In this document: positions 11,543-18,009 of the stretch, one piece after another
How the letters are laid out: each line of letters opens with the position of its first letter
Position numbering within the stretch: position 1 is the stretch's first letter
Notes under the pieces: model-generated
What the model was told of the DNA's origin: nothing
What the model saw: only the letters and a program-made list of their open reading frames with translations
The model's database searches: none
NCBI GenBank assembly: GCA_905234495.1
Contig: CAJOHE010000003.1
Span: 6,355-70,354, forward strand
Length of the DNA stretch: 64,000 nucleotides
Direction of reading: 5' to 3'
Source: an uncultured Eubacterium sp.
GTDB lineage: Bacteria > Bacillota > Clostridia > Oscillospirales > Acutalibacteraceae
Translations under genes and position numbers: made by a program

Positions 11543-12364
11543 TTATTCATCTTCGCCCGTGGGAATACTCTCTGCGGTGCCGTAAAGCTTTATATCCTTC
11601 CGTGCCTTTTCCTCATCGGGTTTGTCAACAATTATATCAAGAATCTTCTTATACTTGTTGAGTCTGAAATTAGGCGCAAGCTTTTTCATTTTATTGTAAA
11701 ATCTGTTTTCTTTTGTAAAGCTTGTTGTTACGTTTCTAAACAGCTCGCTGTCCTTGATATTTTGCGTGATGCTGTCAAACTGCTCGCTCGTTTCGTCAAC
11801 GCCCTTCTGCGTTTCGGTGATAATGAGATTTTGCATTCTCTTAAGCTCGTTTGTCATATCCTTCAAATCCGAAACCGTAGCGGTAATATCAATGATAATC
11901 ACCGTGTAAAGGGCGAAACAGATTATGTACATTATATCGTGGGGGATTAAAGCCGTCAGCTTTATAACAAGCGGCTGAAGCACTTTGATAATAAGCACGG
12001 CACCCGCGCCGAACGTCAGAAGTCCGTTGAGGTAAACCCTTCCGTTTATGTTAAAGCGCCTGCCCGAATAATCCCACCACATAGCGTGAAAAGCCTTTTC
12101 CATAATAAAATGCGTCAGATATTCAAGCGTTCCGCAGAGAAGCAGACCGAAGAGGAAAACGAGAAAAATATTGTTAACCCTGCCGTAAAGCACAGCCGTG
12201 CAGAGCACTGCTCCCGTGCCGTAAATAGGGCAGAGCGGACCGAACAAAAAGCCCCTCTTGACAACCTTTTTATCCCTGATTAGATACAGAACGGTTTCCA
12301 TTATCCACCCTGCAATGCTGTAAAGCATAAACCAGAAAAAATAGCAGCATATTTTATATATCAT
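11543..12364 (-). CDS. Polytopic membrane protein (putative ABC-transporter type IV / CmpB-like family) with a charged C-terminal cytoplasmic tail
   Basis: 273 aa with about 5 TM helices followed by roughly 100 aa of hydrophilic coil. 4-nt overlap with the upstream HD gene. The family call comes from general resemblance only. Confidence 0.55.
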   Translation of the reverse strand: MIYKICCYFFWFMLYSIAGWIMETVLYLIRDKKVVKRGFLFGPLCPIYGTGAVLCTAVLYGRVNNIFLVFLFGLLLCGTLEYLTHFIMEKAFHAMWWDYSGRRFNINGRVYLNGLLTFGAGAVLIIKVLQPLVIKLTALIPHDIMYIICFALYTVIIIDITATVSDLKDMTNELKRMQNLIITETQKGVDETSEQFDSITQNIKDSELFRNVTTSFTKENRFYNKMKKLAPNFRLNKYKKILDIIVDKPDEEKARKDIKLYGTAESIPTGEDE

Positions 12365-12852
12365 AGCTTTTCAACCTTCCTGTTGATTTCGTTATATACG
12401 GGGATGAATTTTTTTGAGGTTTTAATATAGTCGGCGTTTGCGCAGTATTTGTCGGCAAGAGTCAGCGCCCAGCCCGCGGCTGAGTTCGGCGGCAGGGGAT
12501 AAAGCGGAAACATATGCCTTAAAACCATATCCTCTTCCTCTTTGTTAAGTTCAAGCATACCGTATTTCTTTATGTTTTCAACCGCCTTTTTCGGGTGGTA
12601 CCAGACGTGCATTTGCTCGTGCTTTTCAAAATGCCAGTCGTAAAGATAAAAGTCGTGAAGAAGCGAAACTTCAACAATTCTTTTAAGCGGCAGGTTTCTG
12701 CCCTTGCATAGCTCCATAACCGTGTATGCAACGTATACGCTGTGAAAATGAGTGTCAATCTCACCGTGGTGGTTATACTGCTTCATACTTTTGAATATAT
12801 CTGTTTTCAGTATATCTCCGCATAGTTCAATAAATAAATCTGTATCTTTCAT
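12361..12852 (-). CDS. HD-domain phosphohydrolase
   Basis: 163 aa; H...HD pattern (HFHSVYVA ... LLHDFYLYDWH). Confidence 0.75.
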   Translation of the reverse strand: MKDTDLFIELCGDILKTDIFKSMKQYNHHGEIDTHFHSVYVAYTVMELCKGRNLPLKRIVEVSLLHDFYLYDWHFEKHEQMHVWYHPKKAVENIKKYGMLELNKEEEDMVLRHMFPLYPLPPNSAAGWALTLADKYCANADYIKTSKKFIPVYNEINRKVEKL

Positions 12853-12989: not shown

Positions 12990-13018
12990 TTGTATGTAAA
13001 AAACATATATGATATAAT
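12990..13018 (+). promoter_or_regulatory. Sigma-A type promoter for the 13074-17882 operon
   Basis: TTGTAT (12990-12995), 17 nt spacer, TATAAT (13013-13018), inside a 220-nt AT-rich divergent intergenic region. Confidence 0.5.
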
Positions 13019-13073: not shown

Positions 13074-13838
13074 TTGAAAGAAGCAAAAGCCATGGCATAT
13101 GCAAATATGTACGGCGTGCTTTGCACTCTTGAAAACCTTTGCGAGCTTGACGACGATGCAAAGAAAATCTGTCAGGAGCTCAAGAAGCCCGTTTCACTCT
13201 GTTTTGACGTTTCGGGCGGACCTTGCTGTACCTTTAATTTCACAAAGGACGGCTGTAAAATGACCGAGGGCAGCTACGGCTGTACCTGCAAGATGAATTT
13301 TTCATCACCCGAAAAATTCAACGCGCTTATCGACGACGCTAAGCCGGGTATTCCCGTAAAGAATATTCCGCAGGTGCTTTCCTTCCTGCTCGGCCCGTTC
13401 ACAAAGCTCACCGATTTGCTTGTGAAGTATCTCAAGCCCGAGGAAGAAGACCTCAAAAACCGCGATTTCTTTGAAAAGTCGACCATTATGACGATGTACA
13501 CAATCGGCGGCGCAATCTGCGCTCTTGCAAATAACGACTCAATTTCAAAGCTTTCCGCGTCCTACATCTGCGACGGCGATATCCAGATGGGTATAACCGA
13601 CGCCTGCTACGTAACAATCCGTTGCAGAAACCATAAGCTTGAGCTCATCAAAGAAAAGCCCGACACTCCGAGGGCAATTATGGAGTTCAAGACAATCGAC
13701 CTTGCAAACGGACTCTTCAACGGCACGGCTTCAACTATGGCGGAGCTTTGCGCGGGCAACATCTATATGAGCGGTATGATTAATATGATTGACAACGTTA
13801 ACCGTATTCTCGACAGAGTTGCCGTATATCTCGGATAA
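13074..13838 (+). CDS. Hypothetical protein with SCP2 (sterol-carrier-like) features; paralogue of 17085-17882
   Basis: TTG start 6 nt after GGGGGA; an alternative ATG at 13092 is poorly spaced from the RBS. The C-terminal KTIDLANGLFNGTASTMAELCAGNIYMSGMINM resembles the SCP2 pattern D-L..L..G......A...G.I...G. FSSPEKFNALI matches FSSMEKMNAFM in the paralogue. Confidence 0.55.
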   Translation: MKEAKAMAYANMYGVLCTLENLCELDDDAKKICQELKKPVSLCFDVSGGPCCTFNFTKDGCKMTEGSYGCTCKMNFSSPEKFNALIDDAKPGIPVKNIPQVLSFLLGPFTKLTDLLVKYLKPEEEDLKNRDFFEKSTIMTMYTIGGAICALANNDSISKLSASYICDGDIQMGITDACYVTIRCRNHKLELIKEKPDTPRAIMEFKTIDLANGLFNGTASTMAELCAGNIYMSGMINMIDNVNRILDRVAVYLG

Positions 13839-13850
13839 GGAGGGAATGTA

Positions 13851-15122
13851 ATGAGTAAATATCCTGAATATAAACACGAAAAATCACAGGAGTGGTTCAA
13901 CAGAGCGCTCAACGCAATTCCTTCGGGCGTTTACGGCCATCTCGGACCGAGTGAAGGTCTTTTTCTTCCTATTACAAAATGGCCGCTGATGTGCGACCAC
14001 GCCAAGGGAACCTATTTCTGGGACGTTGACGGCAACAAGTATCTCGACTTTATGTGCGCTTACGGACCGAATGTTCTCGGCTACTGCGACGACGACGTTG
14101 ACGCCGCCGCTATGGAACAGCTCAAAATCGGCAACTGCACGACCTCGCCTTCCTACAAGATGGTAGAGTGCGCCGAGCTTCTCAAGGACACGGTTGCAAT
14201 GGCTGACTGGGCGTTCTTTATGAAAAACGGTTCCGACGCCACAACCTTCAGCGTAATGTGCGCAAGAGCTCATACGGGCAAGAAAAAGATGATGTTCTTC
14301 AAGGGCTACTACCACGGCGATTTCCAGTGGTGCCAGAAGGCTGACTATCCGGGCATCCTTCCCGAAGAGGTTGCAAACAATATCATTGTTCCGTGGTTCG
14401 ACCTTGACGCTATGCAGGAGGCGTACGACGCTTGCGGCGGCGACGTTGCAGGTCTTATCGCACAGCCCTATGACCACGGTAATTTCTACGACAACGTTTG
14501 CGCTACCAAAGAGCAGTGGCAGGCAGTTCGTAAGTTCTGCGACGACCACGGTATGGTTCTCATTTTCGACGACGTTCGTACCGGCTTCAGGCTCGACATC
14601 GCGGGTTCCGACCATTACTACGGAATCAAGGCGGACCTCTGCTGCTTCTGTAAGGCTCTTGCAAACGGCTACAATATGTCCGCTGTCTGCGGTCAGGAGC
14701 ATATGAAAAACGCCGCGTCGTCGGTTGTTTACACGGGTTCATACTGGATGAGCGCAGAGCCCTTCGCGGCTTGCCTCGCGTGTATCCCGAAGATGAAGAG
14801 GCTCGACATCCCGACAATGTTCAGGGAAAAGGGCATCAAGCTCACCGAAGGCTTCAAGGCTGCGGGTAAGGAGCACGGCTTTGACCTCGTTGTATCGGGT
14901 GAGCCCGCGCTCTTCTATCTCAGAATTGCAAACGACGACAGCCTTATGCTTCATCAGGAGTGGATTGCAGAGTGCGTAAGCAGGGGACTTTTCCTCGCTT
15001 CCCACCACAACCACTTCATCAACGCCGCCGTTACGGACGACGATATTAAGCTTGCTATTGATATAGCAGAGGATGCTTTCGGCGTAGTTGCCGCAAATCA
15101 TCCCGAGCTTGATTTGAAATAA
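13851..15122 (+). CDS. Class-III (omega-amine / glutamate-1-semialdehyde aminomutase-like) PLP aminotransferase
   Basis: 423 aa; N-terminal NAIPSGV, DVDGNKYLDF, and a candidate PLP lysine in FCKALANGYNMSAV. Confidence 0.85.
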   Translation: MSKYPEYKHEKSQEWFNRALNAIPSGVYGHLGPSEGLFLPITKWPLMCDHAKGTYFWDVDGNKYLDFMCAYGPNVLGYCDDDVDAAAMEQLKIGNCTTSPSYKMVECAELLKDTVAMADWAFFMKNGSDATTFSVMCARAHTGKKKMMFFKGYYHGDFQWCQKADYPGILPEEVANNIIVPWFDLDAMQEAYDACGGDVAGLIAQPYDHGNFYDNVCATKEQWQAVRKFCDDHGMVLIFDDVRTGFRLDIAGSDHYYGIKADLCCFCKALANGYNMSAVCGQEHMKNAASSVVYTGSYWMSAEPFAACLACIPKMKRLDIPTMFREKGIKLTEGFKAAGKEHGFDLVVSGEPALFYLRIANDDSLMLHQEWIAECVSRGLFLASHHNHFINAAVTDDDIKLAIDIAEDAFGVVAANHPELDLK

Positions 15123-15140
15123 TTAAGGGGGTAAATAATA

Positions 15141-16034
15141 ATGCCGGCTGATTACAAACCATTTGACAGAGAAGAATGGTTACGCCTTGAAAAGAAGGCG
15201 GACGAATTAAGAAGACTCACAATCCAGACGTCTGTCTGGGGCGGTTCGGGACATCTCGGCGGAGCTATGAGCTGTATGGACGCCATGACAATCCTGTATC
15301 ACCGCTTTATGAAGATTGACGTAAACAATCCCGATTTGGAGGACAGGGACCGCTTTGTTCTCTCAAAGGGACACGCAGCAGTGGGATATGCCCCCGTTAT
15401 CTGCGACTACGGCTTTATGCCCATCGACGAGCTCAAGATTTTCAACCTCACGGGCGCTAAAATCGGTATGCACCTCGACTGCAACAAGGTAAGAGGTATC
15501 GACTGCTCAACGGGTTCTCTCGGTCACGGCATCTCGCTTGCAGTGGGCTTTGCGCTTGCAGGCAGAGTTAAGGGCATTGATTATATGAACTACGTTATCA
15601 CCGGTGACGGCGAGCTCAACGAGGGTTCAAACTGGGAAGCTGCTATGAGCGCCGCTCAGTTCAAGCTTTCAAACGTTGTCGTTATGGCTGATAACAACAA
15701 ATGTATGATTGACGGCAGAGTTGACGACGAGATGAAGGTAGAGCCCCTCGACAAGAAGTTCGAGGCGTTCGGCTTCAACGTATGCCGCGTTGACGGCCAC
15801 AATATGAAAGAGCTCAACGACGCTATCGAGGCTGCAATCAAAAATCATCAGGACGGCGGCGACAAGCCGACCGCAATCGTAATGGACACCTACAAGGGCG
15901 AGGGCGTTGACTTTATGAAGGATAACTACCTCTGGCATTACGGCTCGCTTGACGACGAGATGGTTAAGAAGGCAAACGAAAGCCTTGACAAGTACTACAA
16001 AGAACGCTGTGACAGAGCAGAGAAGGAGGCGTAA
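15141..16034 (+). CDS. Transketolase-family protein, N-terminal (TPP-binding) subunit
   Basis: GSGHLGGAMS and the TPP motif GDGELNEGSNWEA; 297 aa is the size of a split-type N subunit. Confidence 0.9.
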   Translation: MPADYKPFDREEWLRLEKKADELRRLTIQTSVWGGSGHLGGAMSCMDAMTILYHRFMKIDVNNPDLEDRDRFVLSKGHAAVGYAPVICDYGFMPIDELKIFNLTGAKIGMHLDCNKVRGIDCSTGSLGHGISLAVGFALAGRVKGIDYMNYVITGDGELNEGSNWEAAMSAAQFKLSNVVVMADNNKCMIDGRVDDEMKVEPLDKKFEAFGFNVCRVDGHNMKELNDAIEAAIKNHQDGGDKPTAIVMDTYKGEGVDFMKDNYLWHYGSLDDEMVKKANESLDKYYKERCDRAEKEA

Positions 16035-16036
16035 TT

Positions 16037-17047
16037 ATGGGCGGAATGACATATACAATGACGGATACCACAAAGCTTTCAACTGCTGAATGTTACGGTA
16101 TCGCGCTTTGCGAACTCGGCGAGGAGCATCAGGACGTTGTTGCCCTTACCGCTGACCTTGCCAAGTCAACTAAAATAGGAATGTTCGGCGAAAAATACCC
16201 CGACAGATTTTTCAACGTAGGTATTGCCGAGCAGAATCTTTTCGGCGTTGCAGCAGGTATGGCTAAAAACGGACTCGTTCCCTTTGCCTCAACCTTCGCA
16301 ATCTTTACGGCTGCCCGTTCTCTCGACCAGATTCACACCGATATCTGCTATCAGAACGTACCGGTTAAGATTATCGCAACCCACGCGGGAACATCCTTCG
16401 GTCAGGCTGGTTCAACCCACCATTCGCTCATCGATATGGCTTGTATGAGAGTTCTTCCTCATATGACCGTTATCTGCCCCTGCGACGGCGTTGAAACCTA
16501 CCACGCTGTTAAGGCGGCTTACGATATCGAAGGCCCCGTATATATCAGAATTAACCGCGGTTTCGACCAGGTTATCTATAAGAATCTCGACGACTGCAAG
16601 TTCGACTACAAAAAGGCAACCGTTATGAACGAGGGAACGGATATCACCGTTATCGCCTGCGGTTCCTGCGTATTCGAGGCAATGCAGGCTGCGCGTATGG
16701 CAGAGGCTGACGCAGGGCTCAAGGTAAGAGTGCTCAATATGCACACAATCAAGCCCGTTGACGAGGAGGCAATCCTCTCGGCAGTTGCCGACACACGCAG
16801 AATCATCACCGTTGAAGACCACGAGGTAATGGGCGGTCTCGGCTCAGCCGTTGCCGACGTTGTTGCAAAGTCGGGTAAGGGCTGCGCGTTCAGAATGCTC
16901 GGTCATCAGGACGACTTCTCAACAATCGGACTTCAGGAGGATCTTCTTTCTATGGCTAAGATTGACTCAAACGGAATCTTTGAGGCAATCAGCGAGGTTA
17001 TGCACGCAGACTTTGAGGCTGACGATGCATGGGACGACGAATTCTAA
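16037..17047 (+). CDS. Transketolase-family protein, C-terminal (pyrimidine-binding) subunit
   Basis: GIAEQNLFGVAAGMA motif; 336 aa; starts 2 nt after the N subunit stop. Confidence 0.9.
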   Translation: MGGMTYTMTDTTKLSTAECYGIALCELGEEHQDVVALTADLAKSTKIGMFGEKYPDRFFNVGIAEQNLFGVAAGMAKNGLVPFASTFAIFTAARSLDQIHTDICYQNVPVKIIATHAGTSFGQAGSTHHSLIDMACMRVLPHMTVICPCDGVETYHAVKAAYDIEGPVYIRINRGFDQVIYKNLDDCKFDYKKATVMNEGTDITVIACGSCVFEAMQAARMAEADAGLKVRVLNMHTIKPVDEEAILSAVADTRRIITVEDHEVMGGLGSAVADVVAKSGKGCAFRMLGHQDDFSTIGLQEDLLSMAKIDSNGIFEAISEVMHADFEADDAWDDEF

Positions 17048-17084
17048 ATCGAATTTGTTACCTTAATTGAAAGGAGTGACTTTA

Positions 17085-17882
17085 ATGGCAAGTGACGAAA
17101 CCCGTTACACCAATAAAATTTTTATGGCGGCAGCCCTGCCGCTTATGAAGACGATTGCAACGGACGTTCCCGAGCTGCACAAAAAGTTCGAGGGCGTAAA
17201 CGCAATCTATCAGGTCTCGGCAAAGGTGAACGCCGAGGACGTTGAGGCAATCCATTTCATCGTCGAAGACGGCGAATGGAACGTTAAACTCGGCGAATAC
17301 CTCGGTCAGAAGAAAATTGACGGCGAGCTTGCTTTTTCCTCAATGGAAAAGATGAACGCTTTTATGAAGGGCGATATGACAAAGCTACCCAAGTTTAAAA
17401 TCAAGTCCTTCGGCAAGTTCTTAAAGTTTATGCAGGTGCTTCTCAAGATGAGCGACCTGCTCGGAATTGCAGAGCCGCCTGAAAACGACGAGGAGCTTTC
17501 GCTTCTTCTCTGCAAGCTCTATTTCTACCTTCTGTCCTCGGGCATTTCCCAGCTCAACAAAATGGAGCATCCCGCAGTTCACGAATGGGCGCTCAAGAGC
17601 CCCGACCGCTGCTATCAGTGGGCGGTTGAAGGTCATCCCGAATGTACTGCGTATATGCGCGTTAAGGCAGGAAAGTCCAAGGCGGGCAGGGGAGAGTACA
17701 AGAGGGCGAAACCCTTCTTCTGTATGAAGTTTGACTGCGCAACCTCAGCGCTCAAAATTCTTCTCGGCACCGGCGATATGTTCCAGATGACTGCCGACAA
17801 GCAGCTCATTATGGAAGGCGCGCCCGAGTTCGGCGTACAAATCGGCGACTATATGATGATAGTCGGCGACCTTGCTAAATAG
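17085..17882 (+). CDS. Hypothetical protein with SCP2-like features; paralogue of 13074-13838
   Basis: ATG at 17085 is preferred because AAGGAG (17071-17076) lies 8 nt upstream; the ORF track starts at the TTG at 17067. The C-terminal FDCATSALKILLGTGDMFQMTADKQLIMEGAPEFG fits the SCP2-like pattern. Confidence 0.55.
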   Translation: MASDETRYTNKIFMAAALPLMKTIATDVPELHKKFEGVNAIYQVSAKVNAEDVEAIHFIVEDGEWNVKLGEYLGQKKIDGELAFSSMEKMNAFMKGDMTKLPKFKIKSFGKFLKFMQVLLKMSDLLGIAEPPENDEELSLLLCKLYFYLLSSGISQLNKMEHPAVHEWALKSPDRCYQWAVEGHPECTAYMRVKAGKSKAGRGEYKRAKPFFCMKFDCATSALKILLGTGDMFQMTADKQLIMEGAPEFGVQIGDYMMIVGDLAK

Positions 17883-17930
17883 GCTGCCGATAAGGGCGCA
17901 TAAACGTGACAGAATTTTATTATGATTTTA

Positions 17931-17958
17931 CGGGCGGGTTTTTCACCTGCCCGTTTTT
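17931..17958 (+). terminator. Intrinsic terminator of the operon; member of the TGTA-CGGGNGGG hairpin family
   Basis: Stem CGGGCGGG (17931-17938) / CCTGCCCG (17946-17953) with one G-U pair, a loop ending in TCA followed by C (TTCAC-like), and T-run 17954-17958. Confidence 0.7.
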
Positions 17959-18009
17959 ATATTGCATTTTTTTAAATATATGTTATTATATTAATATATT
18001 AAGAAGACG

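Follow-up and report, generated by a model that had tools for sequence, protein, structure and literature searches.

A five-gene operon with a FumI-type aminotransferase, a split transketolase and two tandem SCP2-like proteins in gut and rumen Clostridia, and its possible role in sphingoid-base metabolism

The operon and its transcription signals

The subject of this work is a five-gene operon (13074–17882) found in a 64-kb stretch of DNA, from here on called the window (positions 1–64000), from an uncultured Eubacterium sp. of the Acutalibacteraceae (contig CAJOHE010000003.1 of assembly GCA_905234495.1). Its genes all lie on the forward strand and encode, in this order, the SCP2-like protein A (13074–13838), a class-III aminotransferase (AT; 13851–15122) of the type that works with pyridoxal phosphate (PLP), the N-terminal subunit of a split transketolase (TK), named TKN, which carries the binding site for thiamine diphosphate (ThDP) and Mg (15141–16034), the C-terminal subunit, named TKC, with the pyrimidine-binding and C-terminal domains (16037–17047), and the SCP2-like protein B (17085–17882), with intergenic gaps of 12, 18, 2, and 37 nt. 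An earlier reading of the DNA, referred to here as the original prediction, had described these genes as a co-directional and self-contained group with its own promoter and terminator, and the listing of open reading frames (ORFs) returned the same coordinates and gaps. The terminator scan agreed as well, since its top match was an intrinsic terminator on the same strand (17930–17962), formed by a stem-loop (17930–17954) with a 10-bp stem, 7 of whose 10 pairs are G-C, and a loop of 5 nt, after which comes a T run.

The promoter stood only in part. The sequence at 12990–13018, also on the forward strand, reads as a likely sigma-70 promoter, with TTGTAT as the -35 box, a spacer of 17 nt, and a TATAAT -10 box extended by an upstream TG (TGaTATAAT). 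The consensus scan reported weaker neighbors in place of this site; therefore, the promoter is a direct reading of the sequence and stands unconfirmed. No Rfam element was found in the 220-nt leader of the operon, and across the 64-kb window there was neither a riboswitch or other Rfam family at gathering score nor a tRNA gene.

Protein A (254 aa) starts with a TTG codon preceded by a GGGGGA ribosome-binding site, and its N-terminus, MKEAKAMA, is kept in its homologues. The ORF of B opens at 17067, and we place its real start at the ATG in 17085, because the homologues of B are 265 aa long, as is B when read from this codon, and because an AAAGGAG ribosome-binding site lies just upstream (17070–17076).

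Proteins A and B

The similarity between A and B is weak when both proteins are compared directly (BLASTP E = 0.006). When we compared the profile of 77 A-family sequences with that of 42 B-family sequences, both families aligned collinearly over 221 columns (hhalign 97.9%, E = 4.7e-13), and the motifs FSSPEKFNALI and FSSMEKMNAFM, on which the original prediction had based their kinship, are indeed present. A and B are true but distant paralogues.

Neither A nor B of the window has a Pfam match at E values up to 1, and the searches of their sequences against the PDB gave nothing meaningful; hence, the fold was taken from predicted structures. The AlphaFold2 models had pLDDT values of 97.4 (A) and 92.8 (B), and in both of them the same secondary-structure module occurs twice. 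The SCP2 alpha/beta fold is a five-stranded sheet packed by helices. The N-terminal half of A also aligns with its own C-terminal half (hhalign 98.5%, E = 2.7e-15), as results from an internal duplication. When the models were compared with the PDB by Foldseek, the top 46 matches of A and the top 37 of B were all SCP2-fold proteins or SCP2-like domains, among them AF1534, UbiJ, the insect, yeast, and human SCP2 proteins, and the SCP2-like C-terminal domain of alkylsulfatase, with target TM-scores of 0.46–0.67 for each single-domain match. Furthermore, 45 of the 77 A-family members do match the SCP2 family PF02036 (best E = 4.5e-11). With high confidence, the models thus predict that A and B are each a tandem of two SCP2-like domains, which carries the SCP2-like character proposed originally one step further. 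According to this fold, both proteins would bind lipids. A may also contact the aminotransferase, and B the transketolase.

The aminotransferase

The AT gene product matches PF00202 with 127.3 bits (cut-off 30.5) and contains the motif FCKALANGY, whose lysine aligns with that of CWGKCFANGY in FumI and is probably, judging from the family, the lysine that binds PLP. Its best solved relative is precisely FumI, an aminopentol aminotransferase (6hbs), which aligns end-to-end with E = 1e-81 and 278 bits, compared with 163 bits for the best HemL. The public annotation names this protein glutamate-1-semialdehyde aminomutase. We rejected this HemL identity, given that the TIGR00713 model scores 183.5 bits against a cut-off of 527.3 and that the other HemL models are far below theirs too; an identity with GntE of guanitoxin biosynthesis was likewise rejected by an NCBIfam score far below the cut-off. 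In fact, every NCBIfam equivalog scores AT far below its own cut-off.

The reaction of FumI takes the amino group off C2 of hydrolysed fumonisin B1 (HFB1), a 2-amino-3-hydroxy analogue of sphinganine, and yields the 2-ketone, with pyruvate as preferred acceptor (PMC3136697).

The split transketolase

The profile searches confirmed PF00456 in TKN (158 bits) and PF02779 together with PF02780 in TKC, all of them well above their cut-offs, and the nearest solved structures are those of the split TK of Carboxydothermus hydrogenoformans, namely 6yak for TKN and 6yaj for TKC (E = 5.6e-79). The thiamine diphosphate motif quoted in the original prediction, GDGELNEGSNWEA, is present and intact, as is FCKALANGY in AT. 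The residues were mapped by alignment to E. coli TktA and to solved structures, and E. coli numbering is used throughout; only the equivalent of His261, in the WH of NYLWHYG, fell in an alignment gap and was placed manually against 6yak and human TK. TKN retains His26, His66, His100, Asp155, and Asn185, while TKC retains Glu411, His461, His473, Arg520, and Ser385. The three domains, the GDG...N motif for ThDP/Mg, the activating Glu411, and the catalytic histidines of a transketolase are all in place.

The substrate pocket is another matter. In TKC of the window, Arg358 is replaced by Ala and Glu468-Asp469 by Gln-Ala; in TKN, Arg91 is replaced by Asn, the GHP motifs have become GH[LIV] and [MIV]H[LMP], and the positions after His26 and around His100 have turned hydrophobic. 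These TKN changes were checked across 105 operon-linked N-subunit sequences. Ala469 and Asn91 are invariant in the 98 operon-linked enzymes inspected (98/98), and Arg358 is replaced in most copies, with Ala358 in the main clade and Arg358 retained in a clade of rearranged gene order described below. Arg91 and Asp469 are otherwise conserved from E. coli to human. The canonical sugar-phosphate pocket has therefore lost Arg358, Asp469, and Arg91 and kept Ser385, His461, and Arg520.

In characterized transketolases, the phosphate of the substrate is bound by Arg358, Ser385, His461, and Arg520, and Asp469 forms hydrogen bonds with the sugar hydroxyls and selects the stereoisomer (PMC11387542). Asp469 also makes a salt bridge with Arg91, and replacing Asp469, as in the engineered D469T variant of E. 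coli TK, opens the pocket to non-polar aldehydes (PMC5073344). Because both partners of this salt bridge are lost, the operon TK is unlikely to be an ordinary pentose-phosphate enzyme, as the original prediction had also proposed, and it looks adapted, from its residues, to an aldehyde or ketol tail lacking the 2-hydroxyl or the phosphate. The hydrophobic alpha-ketol that had been suggested as its substrate would fit such an altered pocket. No second copy of the TK subunits was found by tBLASTN in the 64-kb window, to which this search was confined.

Conservation and modular organization in Clostridia

We scanned one genome per species and obtained 75 loci, besides 80 loci from metagenomes. 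All 75 genome loci belong to uncultured gut or rumen Clostridia, labeled as Eubacterium sp., Acutalibacteraceae, Oscillospiraceae, or Ruminococcaceae. Of these 75 species-level loci, 54 have all five genes in the same order, as do 29 of the 80 metagenome loci, with unrelated flanks; 5 more of the 75 are cut by contig ends, and another 5 have only A and AT despite long flanks. Distant clades, with A proteins only 43–50% identical, keep the five-gene order in new surroundings. The five-gene arrangement is far beyond chance. The operon is also abundant in rumen and bioreactor samples, and the cluster of AT at 90% identity has 2,691 members, one of which occurs on 924 contigs.

At three loci (L070, L102, and L103), the gene order is rearranged to TKN-TKC-B-A-AT. 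A always adjoins AT, and B stays beside the TK genes upon rearrangement. Because this rearranged order exists together with loci having A and AT only, A plus AT and TK plus B are two separate modules. The gene directly after AT in this rearranged lineage encodes a class-3-like aldehyde dehydrogenase (MdlD-like, 435 bits).

Several variant loci carry additional genes. In L102 (8582–11222), and also in L103, the aldehyde dehydrogenase and an Ldh_2-family dehydrogenase follow AT on the same strand. In one clade (L076–L079 and L138), a SHOCT-domain protein of 146 aa is inserted between AT and TKN (7570–8010 in L076), and a PIG-L-family de-N-acetylase stands directly after B (10843–11583 in L076). 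In one lineage having only A and AT, the next gene on the same strand (9338–10273 in L116) encodes an adenylating amide synthetase of the GH3 family that weakly matches OlsH, a lyso-ornithine-lipid synthetase (65.8 bits vs. a cut-off of 620).

The flanks vary between species and are made of housekeeping genes. After clustering the neighbors of the 75 loci, the recurrent ones included aspartate aminotransferase, TagF-like enzymes, phosphoglucomutase, ComM, MurB, WhiA, ROK kinase, HPr kinase, serine hydroxymethyltransferase (SHMT), and an iron-dependent (Fe-) alcohol dehydrogenase. We judged them to be housekeeping and rejected them as members of the system; the Fe-alcohol dehydrogenase, convergent with the operon in 9 loci, could reduce an aldehyde, and the link is too weak to be claimed.

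In the window itself, a 163-aa ORF without Pfam match lies divergent from the operon on the reverse strand (12361–12852) and overlaps by 4 nt the stop of a gene for a CmpB-like membrane protein (PF06541); outside the window, homologues of this ORF lie close to the operon at just two loci (L002 and L020). Farther upstream (4825–9297), two consecutive genes of the CDP-glycerol glycerophosphotransferase family, one of them encoding 1118 aa with two such domains, are followed by a class-I/II aminotransferase. This region resembles the synthesis of teichoic-acid-type polymers and has no linkage to the operon in other species.

Actinobacterial modules

A profile search with distant A-family members led to Nocardia, Gordonia, Microbacterium, Demequina, Cellulomonas, Frankia, Actinoplanes, and Rathayibacter. 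In all 10 actinobacterial genome loci, AT comes immediately after A, often with overlapping stop and start codons, and the pair usually has a short-chain dehydrogenase/reductase (SDR) and a TetR regulator before it and a transporter of the major facilitator superfamily (MFS) after it; 9 loci from soil metagenomes share this layout. The A-AT pair thus occurs without any transketolase in Actinobacteria, as well as in some Clostridia. The AT of the window is 60% identical over 404 aa to that of Nocardia nova, and by this similarity the Clostridial and actinobacterial proteins are clearly one and the same enzyme.

The N. nova locus reads SDR-A-AT-MFS-alanine dehydrogenase-neutral ceramidase, and that of one Gordonia reads TetR-A-AT-MFS-neutral ceramidase, the ceramidase having a Pfam score of 554 bits. 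In Frankia, a GH1 glycosidase and a gene of the endonuclease/exonuclease/phosphatase family follow the module, and in Actinoplanes a GH3 glycosidase does. No other substrate-specific context was found; this one suggests sphingolipids and belongs to a minority of the loci.

Putting these data together, AT most likely acts on a lipid amine itself and makes, or in the reverse direction uses, the ketol of the transketolase, because its closest characterized relative is FumI, because the A-AT pair is independent of TK, and because it adjoins a ceramidase in two genera. For the same reasons, the original idea of AT processing the carbonyl product of TK, for example glycolaldehyde, found no support.

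Two further observations concern these modules. The AT proteins of Clostridia and Actinobacteria are 60% identical (13851–15122 of the window vs. 10774–12042 of L081), and their partners A only about 30%, which suggests, as far as such identities go, either a very strong constraint on the enzyme or an old horizontal transfer of the module. In addition, a protein of about 670 aa stands beside the module in Frankia (6200–8248 of L086) and in Actinoplanes (13195–15201 of L089), being 59% identical between both genera. It has no match in Pfam, NCBIfam, or PDB sequences, apart from a faint Peptidase_M19 (amidohydrolase-like) signal, and it may be an unrecognized amidase acting upstream of AT.

Proposed pathway

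The head group of every sphingoid base is a 2-amino-1,3-diol, and transamination of this group at C2 gives HOCH2-CO-CHOH-R, which is the donor motif of transketolases; thus, AT and TK can be linked by one single intermediate. Engineered transketolase-transaminase cascades interconvert these same classes of compounds (PMC5813273). We suggest, tentatively and giving it somewhat less than an even chance, that the operon encodes two enzyme-plus-carrier modules that act successively, in the catabolic direction, on a long-chain 2-amino-1,3-diol, with the identity of the substrate, the order of the steps, and the direction as we infer them here. The most likely substrates would be sphingoid bases, such as sphinganine, sphingosine, and phytosphingosine, derived from dietary, host, or bacterial sphingolipids. 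Protein A would present the long-chain base to AT, which would transfer the amino group at C2 of this base to a 2-oxo acid (probably pyruvate) and so produce a 1,3-dihydroxy-2-ketone having the same head group as a ketose. The split TK would then cleave the C2-C3 bond by ThDP chemistry, releasing a fatty aldehyde two carbons shorter to be carried off by B, while the glycolaldehyde unit left on ThDP would be passed to an aldose phosphate or released. Passing it to an aldose phosphate would account for the retention of Arg520, His461, and Ser385. Throughout this sequence, the tandem SCP2-like proteins would keep substrate and product, both insoluble in water, accessible to the soluble enzymes, as UbiJ does with ubiquinone intermediates. 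The aldehyde dehydrogenase downstream of AT in the rearranged lineage and the PIG-L deacetylase fit a catabolism with an aldehyde product, and the actinobacterial modules look catabolic, which favors the direction of cleavage.

Several points weigh against this proposal. The D-erythro configuration of the natural bases would lead to a (3R)-ketol, and the compounds that canonical transketolases accept and form are (3S), so that either an inverted specificity at C3 or a different substrate is needed. Mutation of His26 inverts the stereospecificity of E. coli TK, and this residue is unchanged in the operon enzyme. Among the actinobacterial loci, only 2 of the 10 from genomes have a ceramidase, and the 9 of the same layout from soil metagenomes have none; no ceramidase was found at the Clostridial loci. 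A regulator, a transporter, and a sphingolipid hydrolase are all missing from the Clostridial operon, whose neighbors are housekeeping genes; such surroundings would be unusual for a niche pathway of catabolism. Moreover, the TK keeps Arg520, His461, and Ser385, and the summed score of TKN and TKC in the NCBIfam transketolase equivalog reaches 510 bits, above the cut-off of 488; therefore, it may have some residual ordinary transketolase activity.

In broader terms, and with the same reserve, these genes could represent a hitherto undescribed route for sphingoid bases in gut and rumen Firmicutes, a possibility that we rate slightly below an even balance, in which a transamination at C2 is combined with a lipid-adapted TK that cleaves, or forms, the C2-C3 bond by ThDP chemistry, each enzyme having a tandem-SCP2 lipid chaperone of its own. 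Searching the full-text literature, we found no description of such an aminotransferase/transketolase/SCP2 route. Specialized split transketolases, FumI-type aminotransferases, and SCP2 accessory proteins are each known; it is their combination and the predicted lipid-ketol chemistry that are not known to us.

Alternative explanations

The same two reactions may run in reverse and build a lipid instead of degrading it. TK would condense a fatty aldehyde with a ketol donor, for which xylulose-5-phosphate, fructose-6-phosphate, and hydroxypyruvate are candidates, and AT would aminate the resulting 1,3-dihydroxy-2-ketone to a sphingoid-like base, providing these Firmicutes with long-chain bases in the absence of serine palmitoyltransferase. 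Both reactions are reversible, and the engineered cascades run in this direction (PMC5813273). Given the strong, constitutive-looking promoter, the housekeeping neighbors, the very high conservation, and the lack of a regulator or transporter, a core biosynthetic role would fit at least as well as an inducible catabolism, or better. The canonical (3S) stereochemistry would also be no obstacle here if the product is a non-canonical base. The GH3-family amide synthetase with its weak OlsH match, next to A-AT in one lineage, would be in line with lipid synthesis, and a paper of 2025 claims that Flavonifractor plautii, a gut species of the Oscillospiraceae, makes phytosphingosine, without naming the genes (PMC11914097). 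Against all this, the 75 Clostridial loci have no conserved adjoining N-acyltransferase, head-group transferase, or reductase that forms fatty aldehydes; the orthologous actinobacterial modules bear the hallmarks of catabolism or detoxification (TetR, MFS, ceramidase, and glycosidases); and the variant loci have an aldehyde dehydrogenase and a deacetylase. On balance, we consider this biosynthetic direction unlikely, though deserving to be kept in mind.

It is likewise improbable, in our judgment, and to a similar degree, that both modules share some other hydrophobic pair of amine and alpha-ketol. Candidates would be the 1-deoxysphingoid bases and the hydrolysed toxins of the fumonisin or AAL type, which give methyl ketones, or else an amino-polyol natural product or a membrane lipid specific to these bacteria. 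The known substrate of FumI is a 1-deoxy base, rumen and gut bacteria do meet feed toxins of this kind, the SCP2 folds and the apolar TK pocket indicate nothing more specific than a hydrophobic compound, and the majority of the actinobacterial loci have no ceramidase. On the other hand, His100 and His473 contact the C1 hydroxyl of the donor in TK-donor structures, which favors a hydroxymethyl ketone over a methyl ketone. Both histidines are conserved in the operon TK and count among the residues that form hydrogen bonds with the sugar hydroxyls (PMC11387542), and the ceramidases, the sole lipid-specific neighbors found, point to ordinary sphingolipids.

A steroid desmolase like DesAB, as contemplated in the original prediction, would act on the alpha-ketol side chain of a steroid or similar compound, with AT converting the resulting glycolaldehyde or keto compound and the SCP2-like proteins carrying sterols. 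The split TK in gut Clostridia with a non-canonical pocket would agree with this, as would the fact that SCP2 folds can bind sterols and that sterol carrier proteins are among the Foldseek matches. But AT and its own SCP2 partner are found without transketolase and beside ceramidases, the nearest characterized relative of AT acts on a lipid amine, and the operon abounds in rumen and bioreactor samples; since no hydroxysteroid dehydrogenase, steroid transporter, or other steroid-related neighbor appeared in any of the neighborhoods surveyed, we rejected this role as very improbable. It is hardly credible either that a housekeeping split transketolase and a HemL-like aminotransferase are co-transcribed by chance with two unrelated small proteins, a reading that agrees with the public annotation, with the presence of all cofactor and catalytic residues, with the summed TK score of 510 over 488 bits, and with the housekeeping neighbors, but that is contradicted by the invariable loss of Arg91 and Asp469, by the HemL equivalog score of 183 bits against a cut-off of 527, and by a strict five-gene linkage that is kept across clades 43–50% identical in A, within unrelated flanks, and that rearranges module by module.

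Significance

Sphingoid bases are potent signaling and antimicrobial lipids that reach the gut from the diet, the host, and Bacteroides. To our knowledge, little has been described on how other gut bacteria dispose of them or synthesize them. The genes of the operon are annotated only as "glutamate-1-semialdehyde aminomutase", "transketolase", and "hypothetical", which can mislead the reconstruction of heme and pentose-phosphate metabolism. If our proposal is true, the operon would provide either the first bacterial degradation of sphingoid bases that dispenses with phosphate and lyase, or a way to synthesize long-chain bases independently of serine palmitoyltransferase. It would also imply a new type of transketolase reaction, on a lipid ketol, a natural counterpart of the engineered transketolase-transaminase cascades, and a new class of tandem-SCP2 lipid carriers, each dedicated to one enzyme. 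In practical terms, a natural Asp469Ala/Arg91Asn enzyme could serve as a biocatalyst for aliphatic aldehydes.

Comparison with known systems

FumI of Sphingopyxis sp. MTA144 shares with AT the class-III PLP fold and is, by homology, its closest relative both solved and characterized. The FumI cluster is a proteobacterial system of fumonisin degradation with carboxylesterase and tricarballylate genes, for which no SCP2 partner or transketolase has been reported, whereas the operon has both; the FumI substrate has a methyl group at C1, in contrast to the hydroxymethyl group proposed for that of AT.

Among specialized split transketolases of anaerobes, the steroid-17,20-desmolase DesAB and the sulfo-transketolase SqwGH are the known examples. 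Like the operon TK, they are split, occur in gut Clostridia, and have been recruited for an alpha-ketol outside the pentose-phosphate pathway, a recruitment that is for the operon TK our proposal. Their neighborhoods set them apart, since they contain steroid dehydrogenase and transporter genes or sulfoquinovose genes, with no AT or SCP2 proteins reported alongside, and the operon shows no linkage to steroid-metabolizing genes in the neighborhoods surveyed. Concerning the carriers, Foldseek placed UbiJ and UbiT (6h6n–6h6p) near the top of the matches of A and B. Both are small SCP2-fold proteins of ubiquinone biosynthesis that probably keep a hydrophobic intermediate available to soluble enzymes. 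Each has only one SCP2 domain, and their pathway is a different one, whereas A and B would have tandem double domains and are each genetically tied to one enzyme.

The engineered transketolase-transaminase cascades that make chiral 2-amino-1,3-diols perform the same two reactions through a 1,3-dihydroxy-2-ketone (PMC5813273), and the laboratory evolution of E. coli TK toward non-phosphorylated and non-polar aldehydes, with variants in D469, R358, and R520, targets positions that are naturally replaced here (PMC5073344, PMC11387542). These man-made systems work without carriers and on short substrates of polar or aromatic character, and Arg520, His461, and Ser385 are retained in the operon TK. 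A natural pair of a transketolase-like ThDP enzyme and an aminotransferase working on non-phosphorylated substrates is also found in anisomycin biosynthesis, namely AniP/AniQ, where AniP is a single chain that acts on aromatic keto acids and lacks the histidine-rich motif and all of the phosphate-binding residues (PMC11387542). The operon TK differs from it in being split and in keeping the histidines along with Arg520, His461, and Ser385.

Finally, the known catabolism of sphingoid bases proceeds by sphingosine kinase and sphingosine-1-phosphate lyase, the latter catalyzing a PLP-dependent retro-aldol cleavage of the 1-phosphate. A bacterial ceramidase linkage is common to known sphingosine catabolism and to the actinobacterial A-AT modules, given that the SphR regulon of Pseudomonas aeruginosa includes a ceramidase (PMC5150637). 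The kinase/lyase route has the same net result that we propose for the operon, splitting the base at the C2-C3 bond to give a fatty aldehyde and a C2 fragment; in the operon, a transamination followed by ThDP-dependent ketol cleavage, with neither kinase nor lyase, would reach this same end by an entirely different chemistry.

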